From the IMG/VR virus record IMGVR_UViG_3300032007_000017: a DNA stretch of 64,000 nucleotides; one strand, given 5' to 3'. The notes beneath the pieces were generated by a model that was not told where the DNA came from, ran no database searches, and saw only the letters and a program-made list of their open reading frames with translations. A program made the translations under genes and the position numbers. Source of the DNA: a virus. Taxonomy: Duplodnaviria > Caudoviricetes. Each line of letters starts with the position of its first letter. The stretch's first letter is position 1. Below, in pieces: positions 9,905-36,423 of the stretch.

Positions 9905-10016
9905 CAAAGCGTAATTGAGAGCCAATAAGGCTCTCAATTACTATTTTAGAAAAGAGGCTATTTGATGAAACGACAACAACACACACAAACAAGAAAAAAG
10001 ACCCTTGCCAAGGTGT
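9905..10016 (-). ncRNA. candidate anti-RBS sRNA A
   Basis: Promoter AACA-tatatg-TA (10027-10016), no ORF, contains UUUCAUCAAAUAGCCUCUUUUC, ends at hairpin 9911-9941. Confidence 0.55.
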
Positions 10017-10038
10017 ACATATATGTTATAAGATTAGC

Positions 10039-11493
10039 TTATAACTCAGACTTTGTCTTGGGATCAGGAAGTTCAATTCCACCTTCAGGCTCTCTTCCAG
10101 CCGCATCATCATCTTCGATTGTCTTAATGCCAAGGTTTACAAGTTCTTCTTGTGAAACAGTCTCAGCAACCTCATTTTCATCTGTGATGATATTAGTAGA
10201 ATCAGTGTTAATAATAGGCTTATTTGCCCTAGTATTATTAATCACTGTAGGAATCAGAATATCGTAGATTGCATCATCAGGATATTCGACCATTCCATCA
10301 GGTTGAATTCTACCCATAGTAAACAGATTCTCACGGAACCATTTACCAATCTTCAGTCCATACTCTCTCATCTCAGACTGAGCATGAGAATCCTCACGAA
10401 GCTGAAGATACTTGATAAGGTGATAGAAATTAAATGTGATATAGATTCTACCACACTGAGTATTCTGAACCAGATATGCACGAGCATCTTCGGAAATCAG
10501 AGCATTGCTTCCATTCTTCTTATCCTTCAACTGGGGATAGATTTTGTTCATCTCATCGCCAAGTTGCTGGAGATTCATACGGAAATGCTTATTTCCAAAG
10601 TCAATGTCATACATATACTTCGGATCATACTTATCTGGTTTAAATTTAGCAGGACTATTGAACGGAGCACCAGAGTAATCTACATATCTCTGAGACTCCT
10701 GAGTGATACCATTACGATGACGAGTAAGCTGCTGAGTAATGATACGGCTCATATGCTTATACTCGACAGTAACAGTAAGGAATCTCATGATATCCTTAAG
10801 AGTGAATACCTGGGGCTCAGAGCAATGCTGAGCAAGCTCATAGATAAGAGCCATATAACTATCTGCACTGATAATACGAATATCATCATCGATATTCGAA
10901 TAAGTGCATGCATTGAACTTCTTGATCGATTCCATATCGGGAGCATCAATGAAGTCTTCCTTATGAAGAACTCCTGCTTCGATCAGATCAGTCATTGCAT
11001 CAGACGGAATGTACTGATGAACCATCGATGTGATAGCACGCATCATAGCATTATCGGAAATTGTATATGCATTCAGATATAAGTCGGAGAAACCTCTCCA
11101 ACTACCTCCAAGAAGCACATGCCAACCAGCATTGTTAATACTACGATGCACAACAGAGTGGAGATAATTCTTATATCCAAGTACCTCCATAAGATCATTA
11201 GAGAACTTATCGGGAACAAAGAAATAGAAAACCACATTAGAATGCTCGAGAATAGAAGTATGACCAGTCTTAGCACGACGACCAATATACGAAGACTTAT
11301 CAGCATATTGATCAGGAAGCTTGGTATCCCAGCATGAAGAACAGGCTAGAGCACAGATCTCAACGCCATTGTTCATCATGACAAGATCACCAGTGATACG
11401 ATCAGGATCAGCATATCCAGTAACTGGGAGTCTCTCTGAATCTGACTTTGTTTTCTTTAGACCGTTATTGTTGAATAAATCTTTGAGTGACAT
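10039..11493 (-). CDS. thyX: FAD-dependent thymidylate synthase
   Basis: GHTSILEH, QLTRHR..TQESQRY, EDARAYL, LREDSHAQSEMR motifs. Confidence 0.92.
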   Translation of the reverse strand: MSLKDLFNNNGLKKTKSDSERLPVTGYADPDRITGDLVMMNNGVEICALACSSCWDTKLPDQYADKSSYIGRRAKTGHTSILEHSNVVFYFFVPDKFSNDLMEVLGYKNYLHSVVHRSINNAGWHVLLGGSWRGFSDLYLNAYTISDNAMMRAITSMVHQYIPSDAMTDLIEAGVLHKEDFIDAPDMESIKKFNACTYSNIDDDIRIISADSYMALIYELAQHCSEPQVFTLKDIMRFLTVTVEYKHMSRIITQQLTRHRNGITQESQRYVDYSGAPFNSPAKFKPDKYDPKYMYDIDFGNKHFRMNLQQLGDEMNKIYPQLKDKKNGSNALISEDARAYLVQNTQCGRIYITFNFYHLIKYLQLREDSHAQSEMREYGLKIGKWFRENLFTMGRIQPDGMVEYPDDAIYDILIPTVINNTRANKPIINTDSTNIITDENEVAETVSQEELVNLGIKTIEDDDAAGREPEGGIELPDPKTKSEL

Positions 11494-11541
11494 TGTTTTA
11501 TACCTCCTAAATAATGTCTAATTTAATGTGGTCAGACATAT

Positions 11542-11706
11542 AAAAAGATACCTGGATATGATCCAGGTATCTTGAAGCGAGGTGAAATACTAGAAGAACT
11601 ACAGAAAATCATTTTAGGAGGTTAAAAATGAACAAAAACGACTGAAAGTGAAGATGACAGAGGTATTACGGACGGACAACGAGTATGGAATTCTCCTAGT
11701 ATTTCT
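11542..11706 (-). ncRNA. candidate anti-RBS sRNA B
   Basis: Promoter AACT-atcttg-TA (11717-11706), 15-bp long-range stem, UUCAUUUUUAACCUCCUAAAA in the loop, U-tailed terminator 11542-11573. Confidence 0.7.
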
Positions 11707-11717
11707 ACAAGATAGTT

Positions 11718-11728
11718 ACATATTATTT
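11718..11728 (+). promoter_or_regulatory. early-type phage promoter ACATATTATT
   Basis: Recurrent motif upstream of non-structural genes. Confidence 0.6.
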
Positions 11729-11747
11729 AAATGATTACAGAGGTGAG

Positions 11748-12608
11748 GTGTTATATTTAATGGGCTATATTGAAAACTATAAAACACTTGAAATCACTCC
11801 TATGATTCTTGAGATGAAGCCTAGAATAGAAAGTTTATTTAATTGGCTGAATGGATATGTGAATCATAGGATTAATTGTAAGCTAAACATTTGTGGATAT
11901 AGTGTTAATAATTTTGCTATATTTCAATATCCAAATCAAGTAAGTGTATATCTTGGCAGTATCATTGACTTTTCTACTCAAATGAGTCATGGATTAGATG
12001 TCTTTAATTGCTCAATGTCGTTAGCGGCATTGACAATTACTCATGAGCTATTTCATTCTGATCAGGCTCTTGATAATAGAAGATATACAGATGATAATGA
12101 GTATAGAGATTCTATCGAACGAGCAGCAGAATATAATGCAGAACAGTTTTGTGCTGCTCATATCATAGATTTCAAAATGCTATTCGGCTTTGATTATAAG
12201 ATGAAGCATAAAACTCCATATGAAAATTTCGTTAAGGGAAGTATTAGCGATTATTATGTATATGGAGTTCCTGGAGTTCTTTGTTCTACTCTTATACGAG
12301 ATAGAATGACTGATATGTTTTATCGGTATGAGAATTTTGGAATCTATATTACGGATAATAGAATGGAAGAAGTTCCTCCATTCAATTATGATACAGGGTG
12401 TATCTTGAGATGGCATGGAAAGGCTGTTAATAGTCCTGAAGATATTGCTCATTTTCAGGATTTGCTTAGAAAGTATATGAATGGTACAAATATGTATGAT
12501 ATGACGATGTCTTTATCTCATGCAATACTCGAGAAAAACAATGAACATATAGATCTTTTGTATATTTGCATCAATAATATGAATTATTATCCATTCGCTT
12601 TTGACTGA
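11748..12608 (+). CDS. HExxH metallopeptidase-like protein
   Basis: THELFH plus downstream IERAA. Confidence 0.55.
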   Translation: MLYLMGYIENYKTLEITPMILEMKPRIESLFNWLNGYVNHRINCKLNICGYSVNNFAIFQYPNQVSVYLGSIIDFSTQMSHGLDVFNCSMSLAALTITHELFHSDQALDNRRYTDDNEYRDSIERAAEYNAEQFCAAHIIDFKMLFGFDYKMKHKTPYENFVKGSISDYYVYGVPGVLCSTLIRDRMTDMFYRYENFGIYITDNRMEEVPPFNYDTGCILRWHGKAVNSPEDIAHFQDLLRKYMNGTNMYDMTMSLSHAILEKNNEHIDLLYICINNMNYYPFAFD

Positions 12609-12657
12609 ACTTGGTAGTAATGACATGTCAACAATATCGAAAGGAGGTTGATAAACA

Positions 12658-13176
12658 TTGAATAGCTTTGTAAAACGAGCATCTACTAAGGATCTTTATA
12701 AGATTGCTTATGCTATTATGTGTTTAAAGACCACATCTGAGAGCATCACTACAGAAGAGGTAAAACATTATGTAGATAGGTGCTATTATTGTGAAGACAG
12801 ATTAGGAAATATCATTGCTATCGTTGCAGCAGAGCGTATTGTCTTTGAGTATCCTTCCGAGGTAGAAGGAGAAACAATAAAGACATACCCCAATAAATAT
12901 AGAATCAAATATATGCTCTATGACGCCTATGCTATAAAGAGCATGGGTGAAGATCCCGCAGAACTCTTAAGAGAAATGGTTAGAGAGCTAACTGCTGATA
13001 TGAGTGATTGGACCGTATCAGTAAATCTGTCAAAGTTATCAAAGATATCTATTGACTCAGAAGAAGACTGTAAAGAAACTCTTAAGTATGCATTAAATTC
13101 AAATGGATTTAGGAACATGTCAGACGAAGATCTTATGCTTCGTGCCACTCCTTTGAATTTTGATTCATTCCACTAA
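12658..13176 (+). CDS. hypothetical protein, possible degenerate GNAT fold
   Basis: TTG start with AGGAGG RBS; FVKRASTKD N-terminus and NGF near the C-terminus. Confidence 0.55.
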   Translation: MNSFVKRASTKDLYKIAYAIMCLKTTSESITTEEVKHYVDRCYYCEDRLGNIIAIVAAERIVFEYPSEVEGETIKTYPNKYRIKYMLYDAYAIKSMGEDPAELLREMVRELTADMSDWTVSVNLSKLSKISIDSEEDCKETLKYALNSNGFRNMSDEDLMLRATPLNFDSFH

Positions 13177-13211
13177 AGAAATAAACCCAGGGATTTCCCT
13201 GGGTTTATTTT

Positions 13212-16200
13212 TTATTTGTGAGTATAGAACTGAGGTATTAGCATAGACTTGCCAAAGCTATGCTTAAAGTTACTGTCCTTGATGATATTAATGACATCAT
13301 CTTGAGTTGGAGAAACCACAGCAATAGCAACGCTATTTTTAATAGCAGGAATCTCGGTAGATCTAATGCGAAGTTGAGGAACATCGAGAATTATAGAAGT
13401 AGGATTAGTCTGTTCATTCGGATCATTCGGGCTAATTGCTGCAGAAACATCATCGAATTTAATTTTTGTCGATTGCTCGATTTTATCGATAACTTCTACT
13501 GCAATAGCAGCACTCGAATTCTCTTCAGGAACAGCAGGACCATATCCATTCTCTTCTTCATCATCTTTGATGGTTTCCAGCCTCCAGAGCTTTCCAAGTT
13601 GCTTTTTGAATCTAGGAATATTCTTAAATTCAAAGTTATTGAAATCCACTCTGAAGTAACCAGTCTTACCAACGAATATTACCAATTTTCCTCCAAACAA
13701 TTCTCTTACCTTATTAGGATCTCTTCTAATAAGACGGAAAATCATAGAAATAGGATTCAAATTGGAAGCCCAGTCATAGACATCAGTATTAGGAAGAGTA
13801 TTCCAAGCACCTTTCCAAACTGGGATAAAGATAGTGTTCTTTACATAATTCTGTTTAAAGTATGGATCGAAGTTATTAAGCATACGACCGAGATACTCTA
13901 AATAGAATCTAATAGCCACATCTCTTATCGTTTTATTATTCGATAAGAAGAGGCCATTATAGTAAGACAGATCATAGAATACATTCAGAGAATTATACAT
14001 CCTAGGCTTTACATAAGCCTTCTTAATCTTAGGACAAGATTGTCTCACTCGATTATTGATAGCCACATGATCAGAAGTAATTCTGATTCTCTGAGACCAC
14101 AGATATTTACGAAGCTTGGTATTGTAAGAATTCTGGGATAATTCTCCAGGAGCTTCTGTAAATACAAACACCTGTCCTTCCATCAATGTAGTAAACTTAT
14201 CTTCTACTACAGAGAAAGATTCTTGATGTTGAGTAGCAGACGTATAAATATCAAGCTGCATGTAAACCATATCGCCATTGATTACATATTGCTTAAAGCC
14301 CTTCTTTTCATAGAACTTTTGAGCAACAGCATTATTCTTATCAACAGCAATATTTGTGATATTATCCTCATCAATAGCAATCTCAATCATTTGAGATGCT
14401 AAACCACGTCCTTGGTAGTCGTCAGCAACTTTAATAGCTTGCAGCCAGACTACGCTGCTACCAGGAGAATTTTCATCTTCTTTTTTCTGAGAATTATAAT
14501 AGCAAACTGGGATATTGCCTTTTTTCTCATCAATCCAAAGATATCCATGGCAGCCTTTCTTTGTTTTTACTTCAGTAAGACCTTCAATATGGTTTTTATA
14601 CTTCTCAATGACTTCATCATTGATCTGAAGTTTTGTGAGTCTGCTGATTGGAAGATAAGTCTTACCGCTGTCAGTTTCAATAACAGTAGCTTCTCCAAAA
14701 GTAGCAGTTTTTCTTTGATCTTCTGTAGCCTTTATGAAAGTATCTACTATATCAGAGCCAGGAAGAATCTCATCCTCTCTAGGGATATAAGCAGTCATAT
14801 ACCGATATTTATCGATATCTCCCCATAACTTACGATAGTGAATATCTTCATAATGTGTAAGAATATCTTTGACATTCTTTACACTTCCCATACCAGAAGT
14901 AAATCTAGGGTTATAGGGATCGAAGATTACAGTAGATCCATCAGCATAGCTAATAACATTTGCAGCAATTATATCTCCGCACTTATCAGCATATGCATCA
15001 TGCTCACGAAACAGAATAAGATTGACGTTGAATCCCATCTTACAAAGTGCTCTATAACAGAATATAGCACAATGGAAGTAAGAAACTTCTTTCATCTTAA
15101 TGATGTCTTTTACAGTATGAGGATTAAACCACATACCATCAGAATGCTCTTTGCTTGCACCACTAAGAGTATCAGGCTTCTTAAAATGAGTCCTACAATA
15201 TTTCATGAGACTAAGCTCATCAAGAATATTAGAAGGAATGTCATCATATTCATGATAGTTGACGATATTTCTAGGGCCAGAAACTGTATTAACCGTACTG
15301 TACCCACTATCGCTACACGGATACAACCAAAGCCTATAAACACTTTGAGTAGCAGACTTTCTAACAAGCTTAAATCCATACTTCTTAGCAAGTCTGATAG
15401 AGGCTTGATTCTTATTATCCACGTACCAAATCAGATTGGTAGTATAAGGATTATCAACAAAGAATTCTCTTGCTTCAAGGAATCTAGTTAAAAGAGTAGA
15501 TGCAACTCCTTCATGACGATGACGAGGATCAACTCCAATAACAACGATTCCAGAATTCTGAGGTCCATCATAGATCTCTAAGAATCCTCTCAGATCATAA
15601 GTGCCAGTCTTCTCTACTTCTCTATAAAGACACTTACGAGTCTTATCCATCTTAATGAATGTACCCGTACGATCTAAGAAGTTCTTTTCTTTATCACTCA
15701 TATTATTGAAGATATTGACAGCATCCTGATGATCACCATCTCTAATGAACTCAGTATTATCTTCATCTTCAATAACGTATACTTTAGCAGCTTCAAGCTG
15801 AATTTTAATGCGATTATAGAAGTCCTTGGCACCATATCTAAATATACGGACATAATCTCCTTCTTTTAGAGCTTTTATAAGTGCCATTCTTCCTTCAGAC
15901 TTATAGTACTTCTGAATGAATCTTGCCATAGAGATTCTATCGTCAACCTTGTGATCATTGTGCTCGTAGATATAATCGCAGGCACCAGACAGAACCATAC
16001 CTACTCTATTTGCAAGAAGCCAATTACATTTACGAAAGCTATTATTAGCTACATAAGTAATGATAGCAGTCTCACAATACATAGAATAAGGTCCTTCAGC
16101 AAGAACCAAATTATATTCAGATCCACAAAGAACAAAGATTTCTGTAGATGTATTAAAGCTATTGGGAGTGATTTTAGATTCTTTTTCAATCAAATCAGCA

Positions 16201-16685
16201 CCAACTGCTTTATTCATATCAGAGAGAGAAGTGAATGCATAGATATTCGGATAAATACGATTCATCTTCCTAACCTGAAAGAAATCATACCATTTATCGA
16301 AATTCTTCTTTGCAAATTCAGTCTCAAGCAATCTTTGATCATTGGTTGTTCCATAAGCCTTAACAACCGGTTTAGTGTGATTTACATTTACTTCTTCAGT
16401 AAATGCCATCTCTTCATAGACATCAGGATCTTCATCCTCTACATCAAGCTTAATACTACCATCGTTTGTCAAATAGTGTTTGACATTTCTATCCATCCAA
16501 TAGGATACGAAATAAGACGGATTTTGAAACCATGGAGTATTAATTAGAGTGATGGAGTCCTCCATAGACTGAGTCAAAAGGGTGATCATAGCACCCTTCT
16601 TTTTATTTGTAGGATTAAATGGAAGGTAAGCTCTTTGCCTTGTTGAATACAAGCGAAGAGGGATCATTTCATCCATTAAAATCAT
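13212..16685 (-). CDS. large late (virion) multidomain protein with two GNAT acetyltransferase domains
   Basis: VDPRHRHEGVA..NQASIRLAKKYGF and VADDYQGRGLA..NAVAQKFYEKKGF; late promoter 16713-16724. Confidence 0.75.
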   Translation of the reverse strand: MILMDEMIPLRLYSTRQRAYLPFNPTNKKKGAMITLLTQSMEDSITLINTPWFQNPSYFVSYWMDRNVKHYLTNDGSIKLDVEDEDPDVYEEMAFTEEVNVNHTKPVVKAYGTTNDQRLLETEFAKKNFDKWYDFFQVRKMNRIYPNIYAFTSLSDMNKAVGADLIEKESKITPNSFNTSTEIFVLCGSEYNLVLAEGPYSMYCETAIITYVANNSFRKCNWLLANRVGMVLSGACDYIYEHNDHKVDDRISMARFIQKYYKSEGRMALIKALKEGDYVRIFRYGAKDFYNRIKIQLEAAKVYVIEDEDNTEFIRDGDHQDAVNIFNNMSDKEKNFLDRTGTFIKMDKTRKCLYREVEKTGTYDLRGFLEIYDGPQNSGIVVIGVDPRHRHEGVASTLLTRFLEAREFFVDNPYTTNLIWYVDNKNQASIRLAKKYGFKLVRKSATQSVYRLWLYPCSDSGYSTVNTVSGPRNIVNYHEYDDIPSNILDELSLMKYCRTHFKKPDTLSGASKEHSDGMWFNPHTVKDIIKMKEVSYFHCAIFCYRALCKMGFNVNLILFREHDAYADKCGDIIAANVISYADGSTVIFDPYNPRFTSGMGSVKNVKDILTHYEDIHYRKLWGDIDKYRYMTAYIPREDEILPGSDIVDTFIKATEDQRKTATFGEATVIETDSGKTYLPISRLTKLQINDEVIEKYKNHIEGLTEVKTKKGCHGYLWIDEKKGNIPVCYYNSQKKEDENSPGSSVVWLQAIKVADDYQGRGLASQMIEIAIDEDNITNIAVDKNNAVAQKFYEKKGFKQYVINGDMVYMQLDIYTSATQHQESFSVVEDKFTTLMEGQVFVFTEAPGELSQNSYNTKLRKYLWSQRIRITSDHVAINNRVRQSCPKIKKAYVKPRMYNSLNVFYDLSYYNGLFLSNNKTIRDVAIRFYLEYLGRMLNNFDPYFKQNYVKNTIFIPVWKGAWNTLPNTDVYDWASNLNPISMIFRLIRRDPNKVRELFGGKLVIFVGKTGYFRVDFNNFEFKNIPRFKKQLGKLWRLETIKDDEEENGYGPAVPEENSSAAIAVEVIDKIEQSTKIKFDDVSAAISPNDPNEQTNPTSIILDVPQLRIRSTEIPAIKNSVAIAVVSPTQDDVINIIKDSNFKHSFGKSMLIPQFYTHK

Positions 16686-16767
16686 GGATTTTATCCTCCT
16701 TCTTAATCTAGTTACTATGATGTTGAAGGTAGCACAATTTATGCTATCTTCAATGATTTATTTAAAG

Positions 16768-16779
16768 ACATATTATTAT
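16768..16779 (+). promoter_or_regulatory. early-type promoter ACATATTATTAT
   Basis: Motif match upstream of the 16822 operon. Confidence 0.65.
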
Positions 16780-16821
16780 TTTGAACCTAGAAGCGAACAA
16801 TAAACTGTAAAGGAGAAATAT

Positions 16822-17115
16822 ATGGTAATCTATAACCAGAGAGGAAATACCACTACAATGGGTATTTGCCTCACTCCAGAATATTATAAGGAGGGTAATA
16901 TGGAAGTAACTCTGAAAGAGTTTAAAGACCGCGTCGATGCATTTGTAAAGTATTTCGGCGAGGACAAGAAAGTAAGTATCACTAGTACTTGGGCTCCAGT
17001 TATTAGTGATTCAAGGTTTCCAAATGGGGTAGTCCCATTCTTCTATGATGATGAACCCAGAAACGAAACCCATGAAAATACAATAAGGAGGATTTTAGAA
17101 AATGGCAAAAAGTAG
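16822..17115 (+). CDS. hypothetical protein (alternative start 16899-16900 region)
   Basis: AAGGAG RBS. Confidence 0.6.
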   Translation: MVIYNQRGNTTTMGICLTPEYYKEGNMEVTLKEFKDRVDAFVKYFGEDKKVSITSTWAPVISDSRFPNGVVPFFYDDEPRNETHENTIRRILENGKK

Positions 17116-19030: not shown

Positions 19031-19083
19031 AAAATAAAGGGGAGAAATCCCCTTTATTTTTTGTCTGCCTATAACATTTATAT

Positions 19084-19159
19084 ATAACCATAGTTGTGCC
19101 TCCTTTCCGGTGGCGAACGATGAATAAGAGGAAGGCTTGGCTTCCTCTTATTCATTTTT
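19084..19159 (+). ncRNA. candidate anti-RBS sRNA C
   Basis: Promoter AACA-tttata-TA (19073-19084), 5' seed CCAUAGUUGUGCCUCCUUUCC, U-tailed terminator 19120-19159. Confidence 0.7.
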
Positions 19160-19196
19160 ATGGATCATATAAATATACAAAAAAAAGAAGAGGGGG

Positions 19197-24897: not shown

Positions 24898-25299
24898 TTA
24901 GCCCTTTCTTTTCAGAGTGCAATGATACAAATCATGCACTTCAGCAACGTCTTCAAGCCATTCCTCGTAGGAAATACTCGTGATCTCGTATTCTCCAAGA
25001 GATGCAGTGATAGCTAATGGACCATATGTAGTTTTGGCCATCAGCTCAATGGAGCATTCTTTTCGTAGAGGGTTCACCATGCATTGGAATTCATTAATAC
25101 CAATGACTTTATTATTGTGATATATTGTTCCGCAGATCGTGAACATGATATCATCAATAATAAAATCAATCGGATTAAGAGGTTTAATGCTGATTTCAGT
25201 TAGTTCCCCATTTTTATCTTTTGCTGGTGATATGGATGCCATGAGAGATTCTGTTTGCTTAAACAAATCTACAAACACTTTGTTGAACGAATAGTCCAT
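24898..25299 (-). CDS. hypothetical protein
   Basis: AAGGAGG RBS; early motif at 25322-25330. Confidence 0.7.
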   Translation of the reverse strand: MDYSFNKVFVDLFKQTESLMASISPAKDKNGELTEISIKPLNPIDFIIDDIMFTICGTIYHNNKVIGINEFQCMVNPLRKECSIELMAKTTYGPLAITASLGEYEITSISYEEWLEDVAEVHDLYHCTLKRKG

Positions 25300-25346
25300 A
25301 TTCATTCCTCCTTTCATATAGATAATATGTAATTATAAATCGAATA

Positions 25347-25424
25347 AATTACAAGAGAGGCCAAAAGGCCTCTCTTGTGTTGGCTCGTTTTTGAAAAGCG
25401 TGAACAGGTTCGCATCCAAGATCT
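25347..25424 (-). ncRNA. candidate late sRNA F
   Basis: Promoter AACA-ttctat-TA (25435-25424), about 45 nt body, hairpin 25351-25378; no ORF. Confidence 0.45.
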
Positions 25425-25442
25425 AATAGAATGTTCTCAGAA

Positions 25443-26618
25443 TTAATATCTATCAGGCTGGATGTCAGGATAAGGAACAAAGACTCCATAAGTCTTTCCC
25501 TTATAGACAAGAGTAGAAGACAATTCATCTCTAACTCTCTTAAACTTCTCAAGAGATTCTCTCCAGCGCTTAGCCTCAGTCTGAGAGAGATCATCAGAAT
25601 TAACAAAGTCTTCAATGATTGCAATACGAGTATTCAGTTGACGCATCAGATAAAGAGCATCATCTTCATCTTCAACATTACGAACTCTCATATTCAATTC
25701 ATAGAAGTCATCTTCGAGAGATCTCATGTTATTGATGCGCATCTTACGCATTCTCTCATTGATCTTCGACTTGACAGATGCTGTAATATCAGCCTCCATC
25801 AAAGCATAGTCGTCAATACGAGAAATACGCTTGATCATAGCATCCATTTCCATCTTCTCGATAGTAGAACCAGTAAGAGCTTTAGCCTTATTCAAAGCTT
25901 TAATAGCTCCAATACGTCTAGTTCCAAGATGACGATAAAGACTAAGTGTCCAAGTAAATGCAGAGAATTTATCTACATTGCCACCGCTATACAGCTTCAT
26001 ATTCTTAGAGATAATCTTGTTCATAGCTCTTTCGAGGTCAGCAGTATATCCATACATTCTGACAAAGTCATCAGCAAGAATCTCATCCACATCGTTTGTA
26101 TAGAACATGGAACGATCCTTTGAGATGAAATCCTTCAAAGCATATGCAAGAATCTCTCTATAATGAATCGAATCAGACATAGCGATAGAGTCATGAGACT
26201 TAGCCATATACTCATCAAGATATCTCCTAGCATTAGCAATCGGAGTAATATCATTCGTTACATGACCAACCTCATGAAGAGTCATAGCAACCAGCTCACG
26301 AGAAGTTAAACCAAGAATGGGATTAAAGAGATGAGAATCATACTCAAGAGAATACTTAGAGATACGCATTTCATCAGTTCCCATAAGATAGTCATAGATC
26401 TTATCAGAATCAATACCTGCATTCACGATAATACCGAAAAACATCTTATCCGTATTATTGGTATAAAATACCTGAGTGCAGGTAGAATCCTTGAAGAATC
26501 TATTAAGCTCTCTACGAATATTAAGCAAATCCGAAGAGTTTAAAGATCCACGAGCAATAGCCCGATCAAAGATATTTTCCAAACCAGAGAAGTCATAATT
26601 GATCTTTCTCATAGTCAA
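25443..26618 (-). CDS. late (virion) protein with HExxH metallopeptidase motif
   Basis: LHEVGH ... EILADDF; late promoter 26643-26654. Confidence 0.65.
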   Translation of the reverse strand: MTMRKINYDFSGLENIFDRAIARGSLNSSDLLNIRRELNRFFKDSTCTQVFYTNNTDKMFFGIIVNAGIDSDKIYDYLMGTDEMRISKYSLEYDSHLFNPILGLTSRELVAMTLHEVGHVTNDITPIANARRYLDEYMAKSHDSIAMSDSIHYREILAYALKDFISKDRSMFYTNDVDEILADDFVRMYGYTADLERAMNKIISKNMKLYSGGNVDKFSAFTWTLSLYRHLGTRRIGAIKALNKAKALTGSTIEKMEMDAMIKRISRIDDYALMEADITASVKSKINERMRKMRINNMRSLEDDFYELNMRVRNVEDEDDALYLMRQLNTRIAIIEDFVNSDDLSQTEAKRWRESLEKFKRVRDELSSTLVYKGKTYGVFVPYPDIQPDRY

Positions 26619-26659
26619 TAACCTCCTCTTAATGAGTCATATTACTCAATTGTTCAGCC

Positions 26660-26697
26660 CAAGAGAAAAAAGAAAGAGGGCTTAGCCCTCTTTCTTT
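26660..26697. repeat. cassette-boundary hairpin repeat, copy 1
   Basis: aaaaagaaagagggc-tta-gccctctttcttt. Confidence 0.85.
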
Positions 26698-26708
26698 ATT
26701 AGTGGTGC

Positions 26709-27161: not shown

Positions 27162-27234
27162 ATTTGAATTCTCCTTTAATATAGATTTCACAAGTATAAT
27201 ATATTATTATCTCAAATAATAGATTTATACTTTT

Positions 27235-27270
27235 AAGAAAAAAGAAAGAGGGCTAAGCCCTCTTTCTCTT
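27235..27270. repeat. cassette-boundary hairpin repeat, copy 2
   Basis: aaaaaagaaagagggc-taa-gccctctttct. Confidence 0.85.
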
Positions 27271-28606: not shown

Positions 28607-28631
28607 TCTTTATTTCTCTCCTTCTTAATAC

Positions 28632-29246
28632 CTATCCTTTCAAATATTTTTCGACTCGTTTATCATATTCTATCCCATTTCCTTTACAATAGCTCTTCAT
28701 GAGGTCAATCAAATCTTCTTTTGTAGAATGATAGTCATGACCAATATGCTTAAATTCAGCCATAGAGGTTTTGGTTAGACCAAGCTCGTAAGATAACTCG
28801 ATCGTACCCTCTGGAATAAAATAGAATGCTTCTCCTTTATATTCCCCTTCGATATCATATGGGGTTCCATCAGTATCTACCCATACAACATGAGAGAATG
28901 GAGCAGCCCAGCATACTTCACCTCTCTCGAATGCATTACGAAGCATGTGGGCGAAATAATAACAATATCCTGCTCTAAACTTTTTTCTTATAACTTCCCA
29001 ATTATATTCAGGAAGTTTATCATATCCAGCAAAGTCACCAATGAACTTTAATACTTCATCGCGCATCTCATTTCGTTCCATTATCGAAAATTTCAATTTA
29101 ATGCCTTCTCCATATCCTAAAGATTCCAATAAGGTCGACATAAGGTTATCGGCTTCTTCATAAAAAATGCCTGGCGATTCATACATATCTTGAAGTGCAA
29201 GTATTTGGTTCTTAAATTCTTCTGGGGTCATAACTTTTTCGCTCAT
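28632..29246 (-). CDS. hypothetical protein with Cys-His-Asp (papain/transglutaminase-like) signature
   Basis: GYCYYFA .. HVV .. YDIEG; early motif at 29275-29290. Confidence 0.55.
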   Translation of the reverse strand: MSEKVMTPEEFKNQILALQDMYESPGIFYEEADNLMSTLLESLGYGEGIKLKFSIMERNEMRDEVLKFIGDFAGYDKLPEYNWEVIRKKFRAGYCYYFAHMLRNAFERGEVCWAAPFSHVVWVDTDGTPYDIEGEYKGEAFYFIPEGTIELSYELGLTKTSMAEFKHIGHDYHSTKEDLIDLMKSYCKGNGIEYDKRVEKYLKG

Positions 29247-29321
29247 AATTGGTTTCTCCTTTCGATTTAGTACTATAATAATAATATATATTTAAAATAA
29301 ATAAAGGTAGCGATGCTACCT

Positions 29322-29489
29322 TTATTTTGTAAGCTCATTCAATCTAGGACGAATATCATCCATCTCATCTTGAATTGCTTGTATTTCAGCATAACTAAGA
29401 GATGGATCTCTTAGTCTCTTTTCAAGCACATCTATTCGATTTTTATATTGATTGATTAGATTAATTTTAGCATACATACTAAGCTCCAT
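29322..29489 (-). CDS. 55-aa coiled-coil protein (not in ORF track)
   Basis: MELSMYAKINL...NELTK, AAGGAGG RBS. Confidence 0.65.
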   Translation of the reverse strand: MELSMYAKINLINQYKNRIDVLEKRLRDPSLSYAEIQAIQDEMDDIRPRLNELTK

Positions 29490-29532
29490 ATATTTATCCT
29501 CCTTTAGAGCACAGTATTAATGAGATGTAAAA

Positions 29533-29808
29533 TTAATCACTAATCTTATCATATGTCTTATAGAAGATATCGGGTTTGCATGGATAGAGTTCTCCATTCA
29601 CTCCCTGAATCACATAATCTTCATTCGAGATATAGTGATCTCCCTCAAGAGTTTTAATGGTATAATGACCATCATTAGATTTATAGACTGTTCCATTATC
29701 AATGGCGTCTTTAAACCATTGAGGTGCATTTTCAATACATTTATCTAAATGAGCATAGATAAACTGAAATGCTTCAATAGTAACAGGTTTCTTTATATAT
29801 CTAGCCAT
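29533..29808 (-). CDS. widespread small phage protein (KKPVxIEA / TLEG / GExYPCKPDIF family)
   Basis: Recognisable conserved motifs; function unknown to me. Confidence 0.8.
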   Translation of the reverse strand: MARYIKKPVTIEAFQFIYAHLDKCIENAPQWFKDAIDNGTVYKSNDGHYTIKTLEGDHYISNEDYVIQGVNGELYPCKPDIFYKTYDKISD

Positions 29809-29813
29809 TTCTA

Positions 29814-30137
29814 TTACATCTCCATAATTATAATCGATACAGAATATGTAATATACTCTATATCAGTACACATAAGAAAAAGTTTTGACTTATCGATACC
29901 AAAACAACAATATACTTCTTTGGAAATATTATCTTTATTATATAAAGATCTCCAAAATTCTATCTGTTTATCTTTTGTATCTATTACTTTTTCAATGACA
30001 TTAGTGCGGTTATTTCCATCATTAGTCAAAGTTGTGTTTGTATATTTTACTGAAATTCTATATTGTTTTAACTCATCGTATCCTACAACTGTTTTAAGAT
30101 CCAAAATATCTCCAAAATTCATTTTAGTTTTTATCAT
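29814..30137 (-). CDS. hypothetical accessory protein
   Basis: AGGAGG RBS; very AT-rich. Confidence 0.65.
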   Translation of the reverse strand: MIKTKMNFGDILDLKTVVGYDELKQYRISVKYTNTTLTNDGNNRTNVIEKVIDTKDKQIEFWRSLYNKDNISKEVYCCFGIDKSKLFLMCTDIEYITYSVSIIIMEM

Positions 30138-30187
30138 GAATAATAAAACCTCCTAGTATATAATTATTAAAATGTCGATTACATAAT

Positions 30188-30222
30188 AAAAAATAATAGG
30201 TAGCCCGAAGGCTACCTATTAT
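30188..30222. terminator. major capsid gene terminator
   Basis: aataataggtagc-ccgaag-gctacctattatt with a U tract on the minus strand. Confidence 0.8.
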
Positions 30223-30235
30223 TCAACGAGAATTA

Positions 30236-32029
30236 TTAGTTCTCGAGCAGGTTAAAGTCATTCATCTGACCAACCTGGATCGGATCATCATTCGCAGGAA
30301 TGTTGGTCAGACCAGTCGGGTGCAGAATCTTGACACGGCCCTGGACAGGCTGATACTCAACGAACTTCCAGCGCTCGAAAGCGTGGACAGCAGGCAGAGC
30401 ATAGTTGTCGACATTGCGGATCTCATTGCTGACGTACATCTGATAATCGTAAATACGATAGATGATACGCTCGCTGTTCCGCGGGCACAGAACCAGGATG
30501 AAGTTCGTGGTACCACGAAGCTTATCAGAACCGATGAACTGATACACGCGCTTGTCGCTCGTGACGATCGTGCGGGTGTAGTCGAGCTCGACGGGGCCGA
30601 TGCTGTTCGGAGTCTGATACGTATACTCGGTCGGGGTGACCATACGAACTAGCTCAGGAGAACCGAAGACGGAAACCGTCATATTCGGATCATTCAGGAC
30701 CTGGAGCATAATCGTAACGACATGATCCAGATAATCCATGAACATTTCCTTGCGGTACTGAACCGGGCTGAAGGCATAACCGACGCGCTCAGGAGCAAAG
30801 TCAAAAGCGGTCTGAACCTTCTGGGAAGCCGGCATACGAACAAAGCTGTCGTCGAGGTGATGATGGATCTTGTCATCCTTGTAGTTACCCAGAACGGTCT
30901 TGATCATGGACATGATCTTGGCGAGCTGGTTGGTGTTATACAGGGCAGCAATATCCTTAACCTCATCGGGGGAGACAGGCGTATTGATGGGATTCGCAGA
31001 CGGAATCTCAACGACGGTGGTACGAGTATCCCACTTGACAGAGGGAGTGCGAACCATCGCGGTGGAAGTGTCGACACGGGCAGCAATCTTAACAGCAGTG
31101 ACAACTTTCTTATAGTCGACAATGCAGAACTTGTTCTTCTTAGTGTAACCACCAAGGACAGCGGTCTTCGTGATCATCTTATCCGGATTCGAAGGATCGC
31201 GGGACTGGATCTCGATACCAGCAGTCATCGTACGGTCATACTCACCGTAAGCAGGAACAAAGTCCTTATGAGTGGGCAGCCAGACCTCAACTTCGCCATC
31301 CTTAGTGGCTTCCTCACCCGTCTCAGGGTTGACATCGCCAGTCTTCAGATAGACCTTGGTCTTGACAGCAGAGATATGAGTATCGATATCGAGGTTGTCA
31401 CGAGAGTTAGCACCCATGAGAGCCAGAATATCAGTGGACTCATTCTCGGGGAGGGTGATCTCGACCTCGACGAACGGGGAGGTAGCCTCGATAGCATCGT
31501 AGAGCTTGTACTGCTCCTTGAACATATCGATCTCCTGTCCATCCGGCGTCACGAGATAACGCGTCTCCATGGTAATGGTGAACTTCGGCTCACGAGCAAC
31601 AACCTTAGGAATAGCACCCTTATCGAAGATGCAGTTCATCAGGATGTTCTTGTGAAGCGGGAAAGTCATACCGATCACAGGATTCATAGTGCCGATGTTC
31701 GCATATTCCAAAACAGCCTCACGGTCATTCAGGAACTGCTCATCAAGGGCTTCCTTCTGCTCCTGGATCAGTTCAGCAGCGTTTTTAGGATCAAGAGCCG
31801 CAATGGCGTCCTCATCAAGAGCCCCCTCAACGAAGAAGTTCTTAAGAGCATTGATGCTGGACTCATACATCATGGCCTTTGCCGGCTCGGAATACAGATC
31901 CACACCGGACTCGGTCATAATGTCACGAGCGCACTCGGCAAAGCTCTTAGCAAACTCGAAGATGGGGTCATTCTGATAGCCACGGCCCATGGTCGCCGTA
32001 GAGCGGCGATTACCAACAACACTAGGCAT
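30236..32029 (-). CDS. major capsid protein precursor
   Basis: 597 aa with the strongest codon bias in the window, late promoter, position near the protease and scaffold, acidic propeptide ending at about AVLE. Confidence 0.75.
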   Translation of the reverse strand: MPSVVGNRRSTATMGRGYQNDPIFEFAKSFAECARDIMTESGVDLYSEPAKAMMYESSINALKNFFVEGALDEDAIAALDPKNAAELIQEQKEALDEQFLNDREAVLEYANIGTMNPVIGMTFPLHKNILMNCIFDKGAIPKVVAREPKFTITMETRYLVTPDGQEIDMFKEQYKLYDAIEATSPFVEVEITLPENESTDILALMGANSRDNLDIDTHISAVKTKVYLKTGDVNPETGEEATKDGEVEVWLPTHKDFVPAYGEYDRTMTAGIEIQSRDPSNPDKMITKTAVLGGYTKKNKFCIVDYKKVVTAVKIAARVDTSTAMVRTPSVKWDTRTTVVEIPSANPINTPVSPDEVKDIAALYNTNQLAKIMSMIKTVLGNYKDDKIHHHLDDSFVRMPASQKVQTAFDFAPERVGYAFSPVQYRKEMFMDYLDHVVTIMLQVLNDPNMTVSVFGSPELVRMVTPTEYTYQTPNSIGPVELDYTRTIVTSDKRVYQFIGSDKLRGTTNFILVLCPRNSERIIYRIYDYQMYVSNEIRNVDNYALPAVHAFERWKFVEYQPVQGRVKILHPTGLTNIPANDDPIQVGQMNDFNLLEN

Positions 32030-32077
32030 TTAAATGTCCTCCTTATTATTTCAACCTATCTGGATAGATAGATATTT

Positions 32078-32089
32078 TATTAAATTGTT
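32078..32089 (-). promoter_or_regulatory. late promoter of the capsid gene
   Basis: AACA-atttaa-TA. Confidence 0.8.
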
Positions 32090-32115
32090 ACCACAAAACA
32101 GTTATATTTGACGGG

Positions 32116-33015
32116 TTATACGAAGTCTAAATCTTCATCATATCCGCCATTAGAAATCTGCTGCTTTCTTTTATCTTCAGCAAGTTTTGTAAGAATGGAA
32201 TTAATATCACTAAGTGCATTAAAGAATAGCTGATAATTAACTTCATTCTCAGTAGCGGTTTTAGTACTAAATGTGTAGATCAGATAATCGGATACCAGAT
32301 CTGATAATTCTGCTAATTTATCAGAAGCGAATTCAATAGGCTTAATCATATTAATATCTTTAGGGATATTATTAATACGATCAATTACACTATTAATCGC
32401 ATCGTAGAGCTTATTGTAATTCTTCTTAAGCTCCTGATTTCTAATAGCAAGCTGATCTGCAGAAAGATCCTGATTGATTTGATTCTCGAGATCCTGAATC
32501 TGTCTATCCCAAACAGATTCCTGATCCATAGAATCTCCTTCCATACCAGATCCTTCAGTTCCATCATCAGACTCCCCATTATCAGGGCCAATATCTTGAG
32601 CATCAGAATTGGAGTCATCAGTATAGTCTTCAGGAGCTCCTTCTCCTTCAGCTACTTCTGCTCCTCCTCCATTGTCTCCTCCCTGTTGCTGGGGTTCTTG
32701 TTCTCCTTCTCCTCCATTATCGGGAGGCTGTTGATTTCCTTCTTCTCCTGTTTCTCCTTCCGGAGCATTGTCTCCTCCGTCGTCGGGAACAGTATAGTCC
32801 TCAGGGGCTGCGTTGGGATCGTCGGTTCCTTCTCCTCCAGCTCCTTCTCCATCTTGATTACCAGAAGGACCAGAGTCGACACCCCCACTATCATCCCCAT
32901 CAGCAGTATAATCAGTAGGAGCTTCATTGTCATTGTCATTATTCACTTCCTGTCCATTGACTTGAAGTTCTTGAAATAAGCGTTTCTTTTCTCCATTTGG
33001 AGTATAAAGGATCAT
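32116..33015 (-). CDS. probable scaffold/prohead core protein
   Basis: D/E/G-rich disordered region with repeated AP(E/T)DYT, helical C-terminus; directly upstream of the capsid gene; promoter 33040-33051. Confidence 0.55.
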   Translation of the reverse strand: MILYTPNGEKKRLFQELQVNGQEVNNDNDNEAPTDYTADGDDSGGVDSGPSGNQDGEGAGGEGTDDPNAAPEDYTVPDDGGDNAPEGETGEEGNQQPPDNGGEGEQEPQQQGGDNGGGAEVAEGEGAPEDYTDDSNSDAQDIGPDNGESDDGTEGSGMEGDSMDQESVWDRQIQDLENQINQDLSADQLAIRNQELKKNYNKLYDAINSVIDRINNIPKDINMIKPIEFASDKLAELSDLVSDYLIYTFSTKTATENEVNYQLFFNALSDINSILTKLAEDKRKQQISNGGYDEDLDFV

Positions 33016-33093
33016 TTATACAACTCTCCTTTCCTTAATTAATCGAATGTTGAGGGCATAAAATAGAGTAGGCTTAATGCCTACTCTATTTTG

Positions 33094-35883
33094 TTATTCT
33101 TCACTCATGATACCATCATTGGAGATTTTATCTTTACGATAGTATTTCTCTCCTTTGAGGTTCATATGATACTTTACTTTAGAACGTTGTCTTTCGAGAT
33201 TTCTTTGAATCTCATACAACTTTCTAAGAGCTTTCAAGTCATTCTTAGATTCTGCTGTGTCAATATATTTCTGACACATCTTCAGCTCGACATCGAGCTC
33301 ATCAAGAATCTGTTGACGTTGTTTCGACTGAAGTGCTTTAGTTCCTCCAATATAACCCAAAACTCCAATAACAGCAATTGCAGGGTCAATCAGAGCAGCG
33401 CCACCAGCCAGAATAGCTAGCTTAATAGTTTTAGAAGCACTAGGAATCAGAGATCCTTTGATAACAGCCTCACGATTATTTGACGTAAGAGCTCTCTCAG
33501 CAGACTTTCTAAAATTATTTGCCGCAACATCAATATTCTTACTGATAGTCTTGTCTTTATCAGAAAGCTTCTGTAAGCCTTTCTTGACTTTCTCAGAAGC
33601 AAGCTTCAAAGAATTCAAAACAGACGCTTCAGTAAGAGGAGTTTTATAGATTGCTGCATTATACATCTCAGTCAATCCCATAATAATCTGAAGTCTACCA
33701 GTAAGACGCATAGCCTCACTCATAATATCTTCAGTATTATGGCTCTGCGGGAACATAATGCCTAGCTTTCTATATACATTATCTATGTCATATTTGTCTG
33801 AATAATCAAGTTTAGTAACACCAATCTTAGCATCAGATTTCACATCACTGATAGCAAAAGACAGTGCATCTTTAGAAATGATTTCAGGACTAATACGACA
33901 GACATCGTATAGATCTGTTGCAATGGAAGGATTAGCCTCAATGATTGTATGGAGTTTAGCCTGATCAAAGGATTTAATATCCATATTATCATAAGCTTCA
34001 CTCAATGCAGACATGAGAGCTACATATTTAGCTGATTCTCCAAAGTCTTCAAGATCTCCAAAATCATCATCATTGAAATCGAAGTCTCCTAAATCAAAAT
34101 CTTTGAAGTCATCATCATCAATGTCAATGCTCCCAATAGAAGTATCATCGATGGGCTCATCTTCATCATACTTCTTATCGAGTTCTTCATCATTCAACAG
34201 AGTTTCATAATACTGATCAAGCTTTTGATAGGTATTATAAACCTCTTTTCTATACTCTTGAAGATTCTTTTTCTCTTCATCATTCTTACAGGATTCAATC
34301 TTCTTGTCAACTGCCTTGATTTCAGCTTTAAATGCATTACGTGCTTTAATAGCTTCTTCTCTAGACATATGCATTGCAAGAAGTTTATCTCCTAAGAATA
34401 CGATAGCACCTACTACTGGATGAATAGCAATTCCTCCAATAACAAAAACTCCACGAATATACTTTAACAGATCAGGAAGTTCTTCAACGGAGTTTTCAAT
34501 GCTACCAGCATAAAGCCTGTGAATCAAAGCTTTTAATTTATTTGGTTTATCTGCATCATCAGAAGTTTTGAATTTATTCATAATCTCCTGATAATCAACC
34601 TTCTCTTGAATGCTGACAGCTCCTCCAGGAGTGCTATCCATAATAGCACTAAAGGTAGTATCAGTTAAGAAAGATTCATTCTTAGCAGAATAGTATTTAC
34701 TGAATCGATTATCAGGACCGACATCGACACTCATACCATACTGCTTAATCTTCTTTTTGATATTTCGAGCAAGTTCAGCTTCATCTGCAGAATCGCAATG
34801 ATTAAACATTTGAATTGCAGATCTTACATGTGATTCATCAGGCATTGGATATTTTCTCTTGGAAGGAAGACCATAGTCTTTATCCGAAATAAATGCTCTT
34901 TGACGAGAAGTAAGTTTGGATTCATCCAGAGGATAATCATCATCAACCTCGTCATCATGAATTACATCGAGATCTCCATTATAGTCATTCTTATCGAAAA
35001 CTATAGATCCCTCGAGCATAGTTCTACAAGCAACACTATTTTCTCCAAGAGCCATGTAATAATCGGTAAGTGTAGTAACCAATTCAGATTCATCAAAAGT
35101 ATAAGCATTTCTATGAAGCCCATACCACATAGTCTCTAAACAGGTATTGAAGCGAGCTTTAAGAGGCATATCATATGTCTCAATTAACTTAGCAACTTCA
35201 ATCGCTGTATCAGAGATACCATTTATGATGGTATTCTCTTGAATGATTTTATCAATATTGAATCTCTTGGATACTCGGTTATAGTTCTCTAGAATCCTAT
35301 CGATTGATACAATCTTGGTAGCCTGCTCAAGCATACGCTCATATGCAGTAATTACAGCTTCCTGTTTAGCAGGACTACTATCAGGAGCAGGATTCTGAGG
35401 AGTTACAGATTGAACAAAACTTTTAGCAGGAGCTAGATTGGTTTGAAGGTTAGACTTAATATCATCAATAGATTTCTGAATCATATCAGTAATACTATTA
35501 AGATTCTTATTAACCAAGCTATTCTTGGCATTCATCTTTCCTTTAACTCTACCGAGCTTCTGCTTTAAATATGTTTGAGTCTCTTTGGCGTCTCTGGTTT
35601 TATTTACATACTCTTTGAGAATCAGATTACCATACTTATTGATCTGAGAAACAGTTCCATGTTCTGCCAGAGCATCAAAGAGATTATACATCGAAGATTC
35701 TGACATCGAATGGCTACTATCGCCAATAGCGCATTCAATACAAAAGATAATCTTAGAGGTAAAGCCTGATTGGATAGCTACTTCTGCTTGTTCATCAAAA
35801 GTATCTCTCCGCTTCAGATCTAAATTACCTTCTGGGATATTACGAATTCTGTTGCGTACATCTACTATACTCAACTGTTTCAT
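33094..35883 (-). CDS. large virion/head protein with an inserted DUF6582-like domain
   Basis: YGLPSKRKYPMPDESHVRSAIQMF module, hydrophobic hairpins, many ES/EA sites; promoter 35912-35923. Confidence 0.65.
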   Translation of the reverse strand: MKQLSIVDVRNRIRNIPEGNLDLKRRDTFDEQAEVAIQSGFTSKIIFCIECAIGDSSHSMSESSMYNLFDALAEHGTVSQINKYGNLILKEYVNKTRDAKETQTYLKQKLGRVKGKMNAKNSLVNKNLNSITDMIQKSIDDIKSNLQTNLAPAKSFVQSVTPQNPAPDSSPAKQEAVITAYERMLEQATKIVSIDRILENYNRVSKRFNIDKIIQENTIINGISDTAIEVAKLIETYDMPLKARFNTCLETMWYGLHRNAYTFDESELVTTLTDYYMALGENSVACRTMLEGSIVFDKNDYNGDLDVIHDDEVDDDYPLDESKLTSRQRAFISDKDYGLPSKRKYPMPDESHVRSAIQMFNHCDSADEAELARNIKKKIKQYGMSVDVGPDNRFSKYYSAKNESFLTDTTFSAIMDSTPGGAVSIQEKVDYQEIMNKFKTSDDADKPNKLKALIHRLYAGSIENSVEELPDLLKYIRGVFVIGGIAIHPVVGAIVFLGDKLLAMHMSREEAIKARNAFKAEIKAVDKKIESCKNDEEKKNLQEYRKEVYNTYQKLDQYYETLLNDEELDKKYDEDEPIDDTSIGSIDIDDDDFKDFDLGDFDFNDDDFGDLEDFGESAKYVALMSALSEAYDNMDIKSFDQAKLHTIIEANPSIATDLYDVCRISPEIISKDALSFAISDVKSDAKIGVTKLDYSDKYDIDNVYRKLGIMFPQSHNTEDIMSEAMRLTGRLQIIMGLTEMYNAAIYKTPLTEASVLNSLKLASEKVKKGLQKLSDKDKTISKNIDVAANNFRKSAERALTSNNREAVIKGSLIPSASKTIKLAILAGGAALIDPAIAVIGVLGYIGGTKALQSKQRQQILDELDVELKMCQKYIDTAESKNDLKALRKLYEIQRNLERQRSKVKYHMNLKGEKYYRKDKISNDGIMSEE

Positions 35884-35937
35884 ATTCCCTCACCTCAAAA
35901 CTTAATGAGTTTATTAAATTGTTAAAGGTCTTATTAA

Positions 35938-36072
35938 ATGCATACTCCCAGGGAAATTCCCTGGGAGTATGACTCGATCATAGGAGGTCCCCAAAAACAA
36001 TGTCTGCAAAGCCCGACACCCGCAGATATCTTATTTGAGTTTAACCAATGAGGCGAAATTCCATTGGCCTTT
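35938..36072 (-). ncRNA. candidate anti-RBS sRNA D
   Basis: Promoter AACA-cttaag-TA (36083-36072), two hairpins, GACAUUGUUUUUGGGGACCUCCUA, terminal hairpin 35941-35971. Confidence 0.65.
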
Positions 36073-36104
36073 ACTTAAGTGTTATGCACAAACTTGTCAC
36101 ATAT

Positions 36105-36340
36105 GAGAAAAAAAATAAAGTTATTTTATAGGGGTGGTGGGGAGGGTTGTACATTTCTGTACAACCCTCCCAGATGAGGTGACAAAGAAGGTGATGGCCA
36201 TCTCGAGAGAAGGAGAAACCCTGGATGGGGAAGATGCAAAATCATGTCAAATATAAACTACACCGTCAGCAGTTTTTCGACGATTTGACTATGAATACAA
36301 GCACCTATTGTACTCTCGAGACTTATTTACTTCTTCATCA
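36105..36340 (-). ncRNA. candidate early multi-anti-SD RNA E
   Basis: Early motif 36343-36355, long-range stem TCTCGAGAG/CTCTCGAGA, several CU-rich tracts, 14-bp hairpin 36140-36171; no ORF. Confidence 0.6.
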
Positions 36341-36423
36341 CGATAATAATATATAATCAAAACTTGATTTAATTACGAAATTACAGATCCCTGAGGAAAA
36401 CCTCAGGGATCATTATTATTTGC

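Follow-up and report, generated by a model that had tools for sequence, protein, structure and literature searches.

Do jumbo phages that carry their own RNA polymerases also regulate infection with small RNAs? In such phages the control of infection is thought to lie mainly in promoter classes and proteins, and to our knowledge next to nothing has been mapped of the regulatory RNAs that such phages may have. The question is raised by a 64,000-nucleotide (nt) stretch of an uncultivated tailed phage (IMG/VR record IMGVR_UViG_3300032007_000017), hereafter the window, which corresponds to positions 9533-73532 of a phage contig of 178,490 bp (G+C content 37%). An earlier examination of these letters without database searches (the sequence-only reading) had proposed that six of its intergenic spaces hold a dispersed family of small RNAs (sRNAs) that occlude ribosome-binding sites (RBSs), each with a phage promoter, a body without an open reading frame (ORF) and a terminal hairpin. 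We located all six units (u1 to u6, Table 1) where they had been placed; coordinates are on the scale of the window, which is also used for units outside it, such as those at 88215 and 113676. The explanation that we favour, with a probability of about 0.4, is that they are a mixed set of short non-coding units, four of which (u1, u2, u3 and u5) carry boxes that would block the binding of 30S ribosomal subunits. That the six are genuine non-coding units under selection we consider highly probable; base-pairing with RBSs as their function is, taken alone, a tentative proposal that falls a little short of an even bet.

The argument centres on u5, a unit downstream of the prohead protease gene. 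Orthologs were found in nine relatives (L001, L003, L009, L010, L016, L017, L021, L022 and L023; L-numbers are our labels for compared sequences) with protease identities of 64-88%, and the locus is absent from phages with 42-43% protease identity. The nearest relative is a 47-kb contig, of which L001, L005 and L008 are parts, with a protease 88% identical and a GroEL-like protein 75% identical to those of the phage studied here; L006 and L007 are more distant. All nine orthologs, downstream of the protease gene, are laid out alike: a late promoter leads, the middle has diverged, and one or more (A)CCUCC boxes are present together with a long terminal hairpin. The anti-Shine-Dalgarno (anti-SD) box ACCUCC occurs in 10 of 10 phages (the window and its nine relatives) and in a paralog, usually with CAU 6-12 nt upstream of it, so that u5 presents the conserved, accessible seed by which an anti-SD sRNA is recognised. 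In most orthologs a 5' hairpin begins at position +2 (L022 and L023 have no clear one), and its loop reads CGCC in six of eight aligned copies. Both the CGCC loop and the ACCUCC box lie at single-stranded positions, and the stems covary. Over their whole length the orthologs are too diverged for alignment with MAFFT/RNAalifold; what has survived is therefore the structure together with two single-stranded motifs, and our structural statements derive from folds of individual sequences and from pairwise alignments. These comparisons indicate that u5 represents a new structured RNA family of ~130-200 nt in a clade of uncultivated jumbo phages.

The family appears to have further copies in the same genome. 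The unit at 88215, which lies between convergent genes, has 19 of 21 nt of the box in common with u5; it is in turn identical to the unit at 113676 at 41 of 43 nt across the promoter and the 5' hairpin, where one pair is compensatory, and to the 3' module of u3 at 30 of 34 nt. Judging from these similarities, u3 and the units at 88215 and 113676 are paralogous or mosaic copies of the u5 family. The u3 unit is a ~100-nt insertion between two terminators that is absent in L005; in L006 and L007 just 39-45 nt separate the flanking genes, which leaves no room for it, and the comparison marks u3 as a lineage-specific insertion.

The boxes themselves depart from expectation. As the sequence-only reading had pointed out, those of four units are reverse complements of complete translation-initiation regions (TIRs) consisting of a Shine-Dalgarno (SD) sequence, a spacer and ATG (Table 1; in u2, 11616-11630). 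In the 20 orphan units of this genome (2163 nt) we counted seven CCUCC/CUCCU tracts against 2.3 expected (P about 0.009), and GGAGG/SD-type words were at expectation. Among 26 boxes in 18 unit copies (window, paralogs and orthologs), CAU stands 4-13 nt upstream in 16, against a background of 26% (binomial P=1.4e-4; the copies are related, and their spacers differ in sequence and length). The probability of being unpaired is 0.61 for the boxes and 0.41 for the rest of the RNA.

Two classes of promoter motif precede the units, late in five and early in u6, and here the sequence-only reading agrees with both the genome-wide statistics and the consensus sequences of Bacillus phage AR9 (Takahashivirus). 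The late motif AAC[AT]N6TA, with an information content of only ~11 bits, has 207 matches in the genome; 81 fall in the 9.5% that is intergenic, where the motif is ~6-fold denser than in coding DNA, and 71 of these 81 share the orientation of the next gene, with a modal distance of 20-35 nt to its ATG. The early motif [CT]ATATTAT has 73 matches, 33 of them intergenic and nearly all co-oriented. The former matches the experimentally mapped late consensus of AR9, AACA-N6-TA/G, in which the last base is the transcription start, and the latter its AT-rich early consensus, ATATATTAT-N6-G (PMC5312081). By motif, the two classes are promoters of the AR9 late (non-virion RNA polymerase) and early (virion RNA polymerase) types, and since both are real, the phage belongs to the two-RNA-polymerase group of AR9. 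Each unit's promoter is unusually distant from the boundary of the next gene (113-456 nt). Downstream of u1 and of u5 comes another late promoter, proximal to the gene, and downstream of u4 an early one.

All six bodies fold better than dinucleotide shuffles (z -4.3 to -7.0). On the transcribed strand none of them holds an SD-led ORF, in keeping with the earlier description of the bodies as free of ORFs. Each unit does end at a strong hairpin, as had been claimed, but a U-run follows directly, as in an intrinsic terminator, only in u2 and u3 (U5 in both); in u6 a U8 run lies ~23 nt beyond a strong hairpin. Rfam searches at gathering and E-value thresholds returned no family for any unit and nothing above noise in 35850-36450. 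In the nearest relative five units (u1, u2, u4, u5 and u6) are again present, with their promoter motifs kept and compensatory changes in their hairpins, which in u1, u4 and u5 affect the terminal hairpin. The idea of a single dispersed family did not hold: u1, u2, u4 and u6 are unrelated in sequence, only u5, u3 and the paralogs are linked, and all-against-all BLAST of the intergenic sequences gives modular links only.

Table 1. Features of the six intergenic units and their surroundings in the window.
Feature	Position	Strand	Basis or remark
u1 distal late promoter, AACA-N6-TA	10016..10027	-	matching motif in L008
u1 body	9908..10016	-	between stop of ThyX-domain gene (10039) and first hairpin; fold z -5.7
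u1 anti-TIR box, unpaired	9949-9967	-	fold
u1 hairpin	9911-9941	-	covaries with L008; no U-tail on this strand
Proximal late promoter of gene 9083..9874, past u1 hairpin	9890..9901	-	conserved in L008
u2 late promoter	11706..11717	-	conserved in L005 and L007
Early promoter of gene 11760..12608	11715-11733	+	back to back with u2 promoter, 3-bp overlap; divergent gap
u2 body, upstream of ThyX-domain gene	11540..11706	-	fold z -7.0
u2 terminator, U-tailed	11545-11573	-	fold
u3 late promoter, between convergent genes	19073..19084	+	motif
u3 body, between the terminators of two convergent genes	19084..19162	+	fold z -5.6
u3 anti-TIR box	19089-19106	+	complement of SD, spacer and ATG
u3 16-bp hairpin, then U-run	19120-19155	+	fold
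u4 late promoter, 8 nt past stop of gene 25443..26612	25424..25435	-	conserved in L001/L005
u4 body	25345..25424	-	fold z -4.3
u4 hairpin	25351-25378	-	one compensatory pair relative to L001
Early promoter for gene 24898..25299, after u4	25315-25333	-	early motif
u5 late promoter	36072..36083	-	late motif at the same place in nine relatives
u5 body	35935..36072	-	fold z -4.3
u5 5' hairpin, CGCC loop	36045-36067	-	fold; alignment of loop motif
u5 anti-TIR box	35982-36002	-	unpaired in centroid
u5 terminal hairpin	35941-35971	-	fold
Proximal late promoter of gene 33094..35883 (DUF6582-like)	35912..35923	-	motif
u6 early-type promoter	36339..36357	-	fits AR9 early consensus; conserved in L001
u6 body, ~235 nt, rod-like with pyrimidine-rich bubbles	36100..36339	-	fold z -5.9
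u6 hairpin	36140-36171	-	fold
u6 U8 run	36108-36115	-	sequence
Prohead protease gene terminator, separating gene from u6	36386..36411	-	terminator scan

The units outside the u5 family differ in build and in history. In relatives the usual layout is a stop codon, an immediate terminator and the next promoter. The stretch of 60-95 nt that separates stop from hairpin in u1 and u4 is accordingly an addition, and in both units a promoter and a spacer have been inserted between the stop codon of a gene and its hairpin. The two units recall the sRNAs of the DapZ/MicL type, which are embedded in a 3' untranslated region (3' UTR), have their own promoter and share the terminator of the mRNA: in u1 and u4, too, the promoter follows a stop codon closely, and the first hairpin past that gene is where the RNA would end. 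They differ in that the promoter lies past the stop codon and not within the coding region, and in that the spacer, judging from the relatives, was inserted recently. In L006 and L007 u4 is missing, and stop, terminator and early promoter adjoin instead. Comparison of u1 with L008 shows UUUCAU and a CU-rich box retained despite a 1-nt indel; the terminator scanner calls the u1 hairpin on the opposite strand only, where its T-run is.

In u2 the 5' and 3' parts form a 17-bp clamp, and the CCUCC box lies in the loop of a small hairpin. L005 and L007 form the clamp from unrelated sequence (13 and ~17 bp, respectively), and there CU-rich boxes inside or after it are followed by a U-tailed terminator. 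As a riboswitch, u2 yields no Rfam aptamer and only a 6-bp alternative pairing, found by eye. The ThyX-domain gene downstream of it (10039-11493, minus strand) encodes 484 residues, of which only residues 240-390 match ThyX/Thy1.

The early unit u6 retains blocks conserved with L001 that are interrupted by indels. Its 39-codon frame has no SD sequence and is disrupted in L001 by a 2-nt indel. The block GGYGTAGTTTAT and the terminator are shared, next to u5, with L003, L009, L010, L016 and L021. A Tad8-family gene (L010:5611-5892) lies beside the u6 and u5 RNAs in one relative, and others have unrelated ORFs of 68-88 codons at the same spot; small genes thus vary between or beside the two RNAs, and the gap downstream of the protease gene is a hotspot for accessory genes.

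How, then, might the units act? In the explanation that we favour, u1-u5 would be fired by the non-virion RNA polymerase from late promoters, each ending at its strong hairpin, and u6 would be an early RNA fired by the virion polymerase. The exposed, 16S-like (A)CCUCC(U) boxes of u1, u2, u3 and u5, often with CAU 6-12 nt upstream, would pair with the SD sequence and start codon of mRNAs, and this pairing would block 30S binding. What the sequences show is promoters, hairpins, conservation, covariation, accessible boxes and a lack of coding; the existence of discrete RNAs, their action in trans and the choice of mRNAs that they would hit are inferred. With an anti-SD/anti-AUG module that is both exposed and conserved, occlusion of the RBS is the most economical mechanism, and C/U-rich seed sRNAs of Firmicutes act in the same manner, by SD pairing that blocks 30S binding.

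We therefore turn to possible targets. We paired 161 phage TIRs with the anti-TIR segments of four units (u1, u2, u3 and u5) and of two paralogs, and the controls were shuffles in which CCUCC and CAU were held fixed. The best pairing with a phage TIR was no better than in these controls, 0.15-0.38 of which were as good, so that the specificity which the sequence-only reading had ascribed to spacer and start-codon complementarity found no support among phage mRNAs. That reading had itself listed pairing no better than SD-only controls among the outcomes that would refute it, and for phage mRNAs this was the outcome. The longest AUG-anchored identity is one of 11 nt between u5 and the ThyX-domain gene (P=0.22). 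Three candidate relationships were rejected: targeting of the ThyX-domain gene by u5, since the 8+11-nt match is within the null and no covariation is seen by eye in L001/L005 and L007/L009; targeting of gene 52764 by u3, whose -26.3 kcal/mol equals the mean best control; and a preference of the late RNAs for early-gene TIRs, as early and late TIRs were matched equally. Given that no phage TIR stands out, the targets are probably host mRNAs or a broad set.

The last of these rejections and the pairing test as a whole weigh against the proposed function, and so do several further observations. Phage genes carry strong AGGAGG SDs, and an unspecific anti-SD RNA would therefore hit phage mRNAs too. 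There is no anti-SD box in u4, the u5 ortholog of L001 has no CAU, and the CAU of u2 is absent from L005 and L007. The orthologous unit copies are statistically non-independent, and the AR9 leaders that we inspected carry no CCUCC/CAU box. Finally, no U-tail follows the hairpins of u1, u4 and u5 (the sequences there are GCUUUGCG, UAAUUUAU and CAUUUAAU), which would permit read-through into the next gene; these three units may on this account be leaders. What stands of the anti-RBS proposal is a set of partly conserved units that look non-coding, a u5 box that is kept and tends to be unpaired, and opposite frames that are not conserved; specificity for phage targets is not supported, and the single family does not hold.

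A cis-acting function is a serious rival, which we regard as possible but doubtful. Here u1, u2, u4 and u5 would be long 5' leaders or attenuators on an mRNA isoform from the distal promoter, with a hairpin and an anti-SD box that work in cis, by pausing the polymerase or ending transcription ahead of the gene or by covering the gene's own SD; distal and proximal transcripts would then be translated differently. This accords with what differential RNA sequencing (dRNA-seq) has shown in AR9, where late promoters in a distal position, 110-260 nt upstream of genes, are used and are sometimes stronger than the proximal ones (for g075 a step height of 1071 vs 61), and where the authors read the intervening stretches as long 5' UTRs of unknown function (PMC5312081). 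Distal late transcription starts were assigned there to the downstream genes, giving 5' UTRs of 26-491 nt, some of which, according to the authors, may control translation. Our phage is alike in its late and early motifs, in its tandem distal and proximal late promoters and in hairpin-containing transcribed spacers of 110-260 nt; it differs in that AR9 is a distant relative only, the matches of the major capsid protein being to other jumbo phages of the group, and in that the AR9 leaders that we read have no CCUCC or CAU box and were treated by their authors as UTRs and not as separate RNAs. As a separate observation, ARAGORN predicts a tRNA-Asn (GTT) at L027:85-158 (AR9 record 208904-208977), where no tRNA feature is annotated and which falls inside the 146-nt 5' UTR of g244 in Table S3 of the AR9 paper.

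Within the window, the proximal promoters after u1, u5 (late) and u4 (early) and the missing U-tails of these same units suit a leader function. So does u2, which, with its clamp and a true terminator at its end, keeps its place before the ThyX-domain gene in three phages (window, L005 and L007), the position expected of a cis-acting leader, and whose box ACCUCCUAAA is complementary to 10 nt of the SD region of that gene. In L005, however, this match is down to 6 nt, and the u5 box mismatches the SD context of the downstream gene both in the window and in L023. A different small ORF follows u5 in L003, L009 and L016, with its own late promoter in L009. Moreover, u3 and its paralog at 88215 lie between convergent genes with nothing downstream of them, and hence cannot be 5' leaders.

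It could also be that the hairpins are merely the terminators or insulators of neighbouring genes, and that the extra motifs and CU tracts are neutral or weakly selected by-products of fast intergenic turnover with no dedicated RNA function. Rapid gain and loss would fit such turnover (u3 is absent in L005, L006 and L007, and u4 in L006 and L007), as would the lack of any sequence common to all six units and the ease with which a 6-base motif of so few bits arises. We nevertheless consider it quite improbable, since ten phages keep the u5 promoter, box and hairpin amid scrambled flanks, its loop and box are conserved as single strands between covarying stems, and CCUCC is enriched where GGAGG is not, with CAU associated beyond chance.

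Where CAU and an anti-SD box occur together, the opposite strand shows a full SD-spacer-ATG, and a function of that strand, for micro-ORF initiation, for ribosome loading or as GGA sites of the CsrA type in antisense or read-through RNA, is very improbable: the complete TIR has a canonical spacing of 6-12 nt in most copies, read-through from convergent genes would transcribe that strand at u3 and 88215, and the T-run of the u1 hairpin lies there, but the strand has no late or early phage motif and sigma-70-like matches only at chance level, its frames are tiny and unrelated (2, 4, 5, 7, 12, 12, 23, 35 and 47 codons), and G-U pairs favour the other strand. Both the lack of a promoter and the small size of the frames had been noticed in the sequence-only reading. 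In 9 of 12 copies, among them each of the five u5 orthologs that were tested, these G-U pairs give the forward strand a better fold than the reverse. The predicted peptides are hydrophilic, and conserved nucleotide blocks are read in differing frames. We conclude from these comparisons that the promoter-bearing strand is under selection as RNA or DNA sequence and not for a peptide; retention of ACCUCC in all u5 orthologs, covarying stems and shifting opposite frames argue for the RNA level. We also rejected type I toxin-antitoxin systems, which the units resemble in having a small RNA antisense to the SD and ATG of a very short frame; the frames here differ in being hydrophilic, unconserved and promoterless.

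Returning to the trans-acting explanation, close parallels are the Firmicutes sRNAs RsaE/RoxS and SR1 and the loops of RNAIII, whose C/U-rich seeds pair with SD regions. Like the RsaE/RoxS type, our units are short and hairpin-terminated and expose a pyrimidine motif complementary to GGAGG-type SDs. They differ in having no sequence similarity to these sRNAs or membership of their Rfam families, in a box that copies the 16S tail, commonly with CAU at start-codon distance, and in being phage-encoded with predicted promoters for phage polymerases. The trans-acting sRNAs known from phages and prophages, such as PreS of lambda, are single, Hfq-dependent RNAs of temperate enterobacterial phages with defined host targets (bioRxiv 10.1101/2024.10.31.621285; review PMC12197685). 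A virus-encoded small RNA proposed to base-pair with mRNAs is common to both cases, whereas the predicted units described here are several and dispersed, in a jumbo phage of lytic type with a presumably Gram-positive host. Our search of the literature found no description of anti-SD RNAs in jumbo phages.

The presumption of a Gram-positive host comes from the strong AGGAGG SDs of the phage genes. Megablast and tblastn against 50,697 phage records gave no close relative; the major capsid protein has ~20% identity to Staphylococcus jumbo phages and Yersinia phage phiR1-37 only. Related proteins number in the hundreds, all from metagenome assemblies, and an IMG/VR search with the GroEL-like protein gave no match. 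Besides this chaperonin, the contig encodes a T4-type prohead protease, the ThyX-domain protein and a 1157-residue protein bearing a GNAT domain.

Other non-coding features were observed along the contig. A group I intron at 39765-39987 (minus strand; 93.7 bits) is the only Rfam family found in the window. The nearby intergenic sequence 39079-39512 has blocks 80-90% identical to gaps at 136807-137195 and 139771-140471, far outside the window, and this resemblance suggests several related introns or intron remnants. Near-identical hairpin repeats of ~30 nt (97-100% identity) at 26613-26708 and 27162-27269 close neighbouring small genes. At 149095-151110 (genome 158627-160642; L015), 2 kb without a credible gene hold more than 10 late or early motifs on both strands and many strong hairpins. 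Further non-coding units may be clustered there, and the gap of 534 nt at 123582-124115 resembles this region. The contig starts with CCC and a run of 14 G, with no terminal repeat found, which is probably an end artefact of assembly or sequencing.

Based on these findings, we propose u5 as a concrete candidate for a phage-encoded RNA that controls the initiation of translation. Action of the boxes in cis would account for the tandem-promoter architecture of AR9; action in trans would mean that the anti-SD mechanism known from sRNAs of Firmicutes reaches to lytic jumbo phages, and the boxes would then be compact natural modules for blocking translation. We further speculate, though we think it unlikely, that the late RNA of this clade mimics with CAU-N6-12-ACCUCC both the anti-SD tail of 16S rRNA and the initiator anticodon, its paralogs clamping host or other SD-led TIRs late in infection. 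If true, such a clamp would be an RNA-based device for translation shut-off that is undescribed for any phage.

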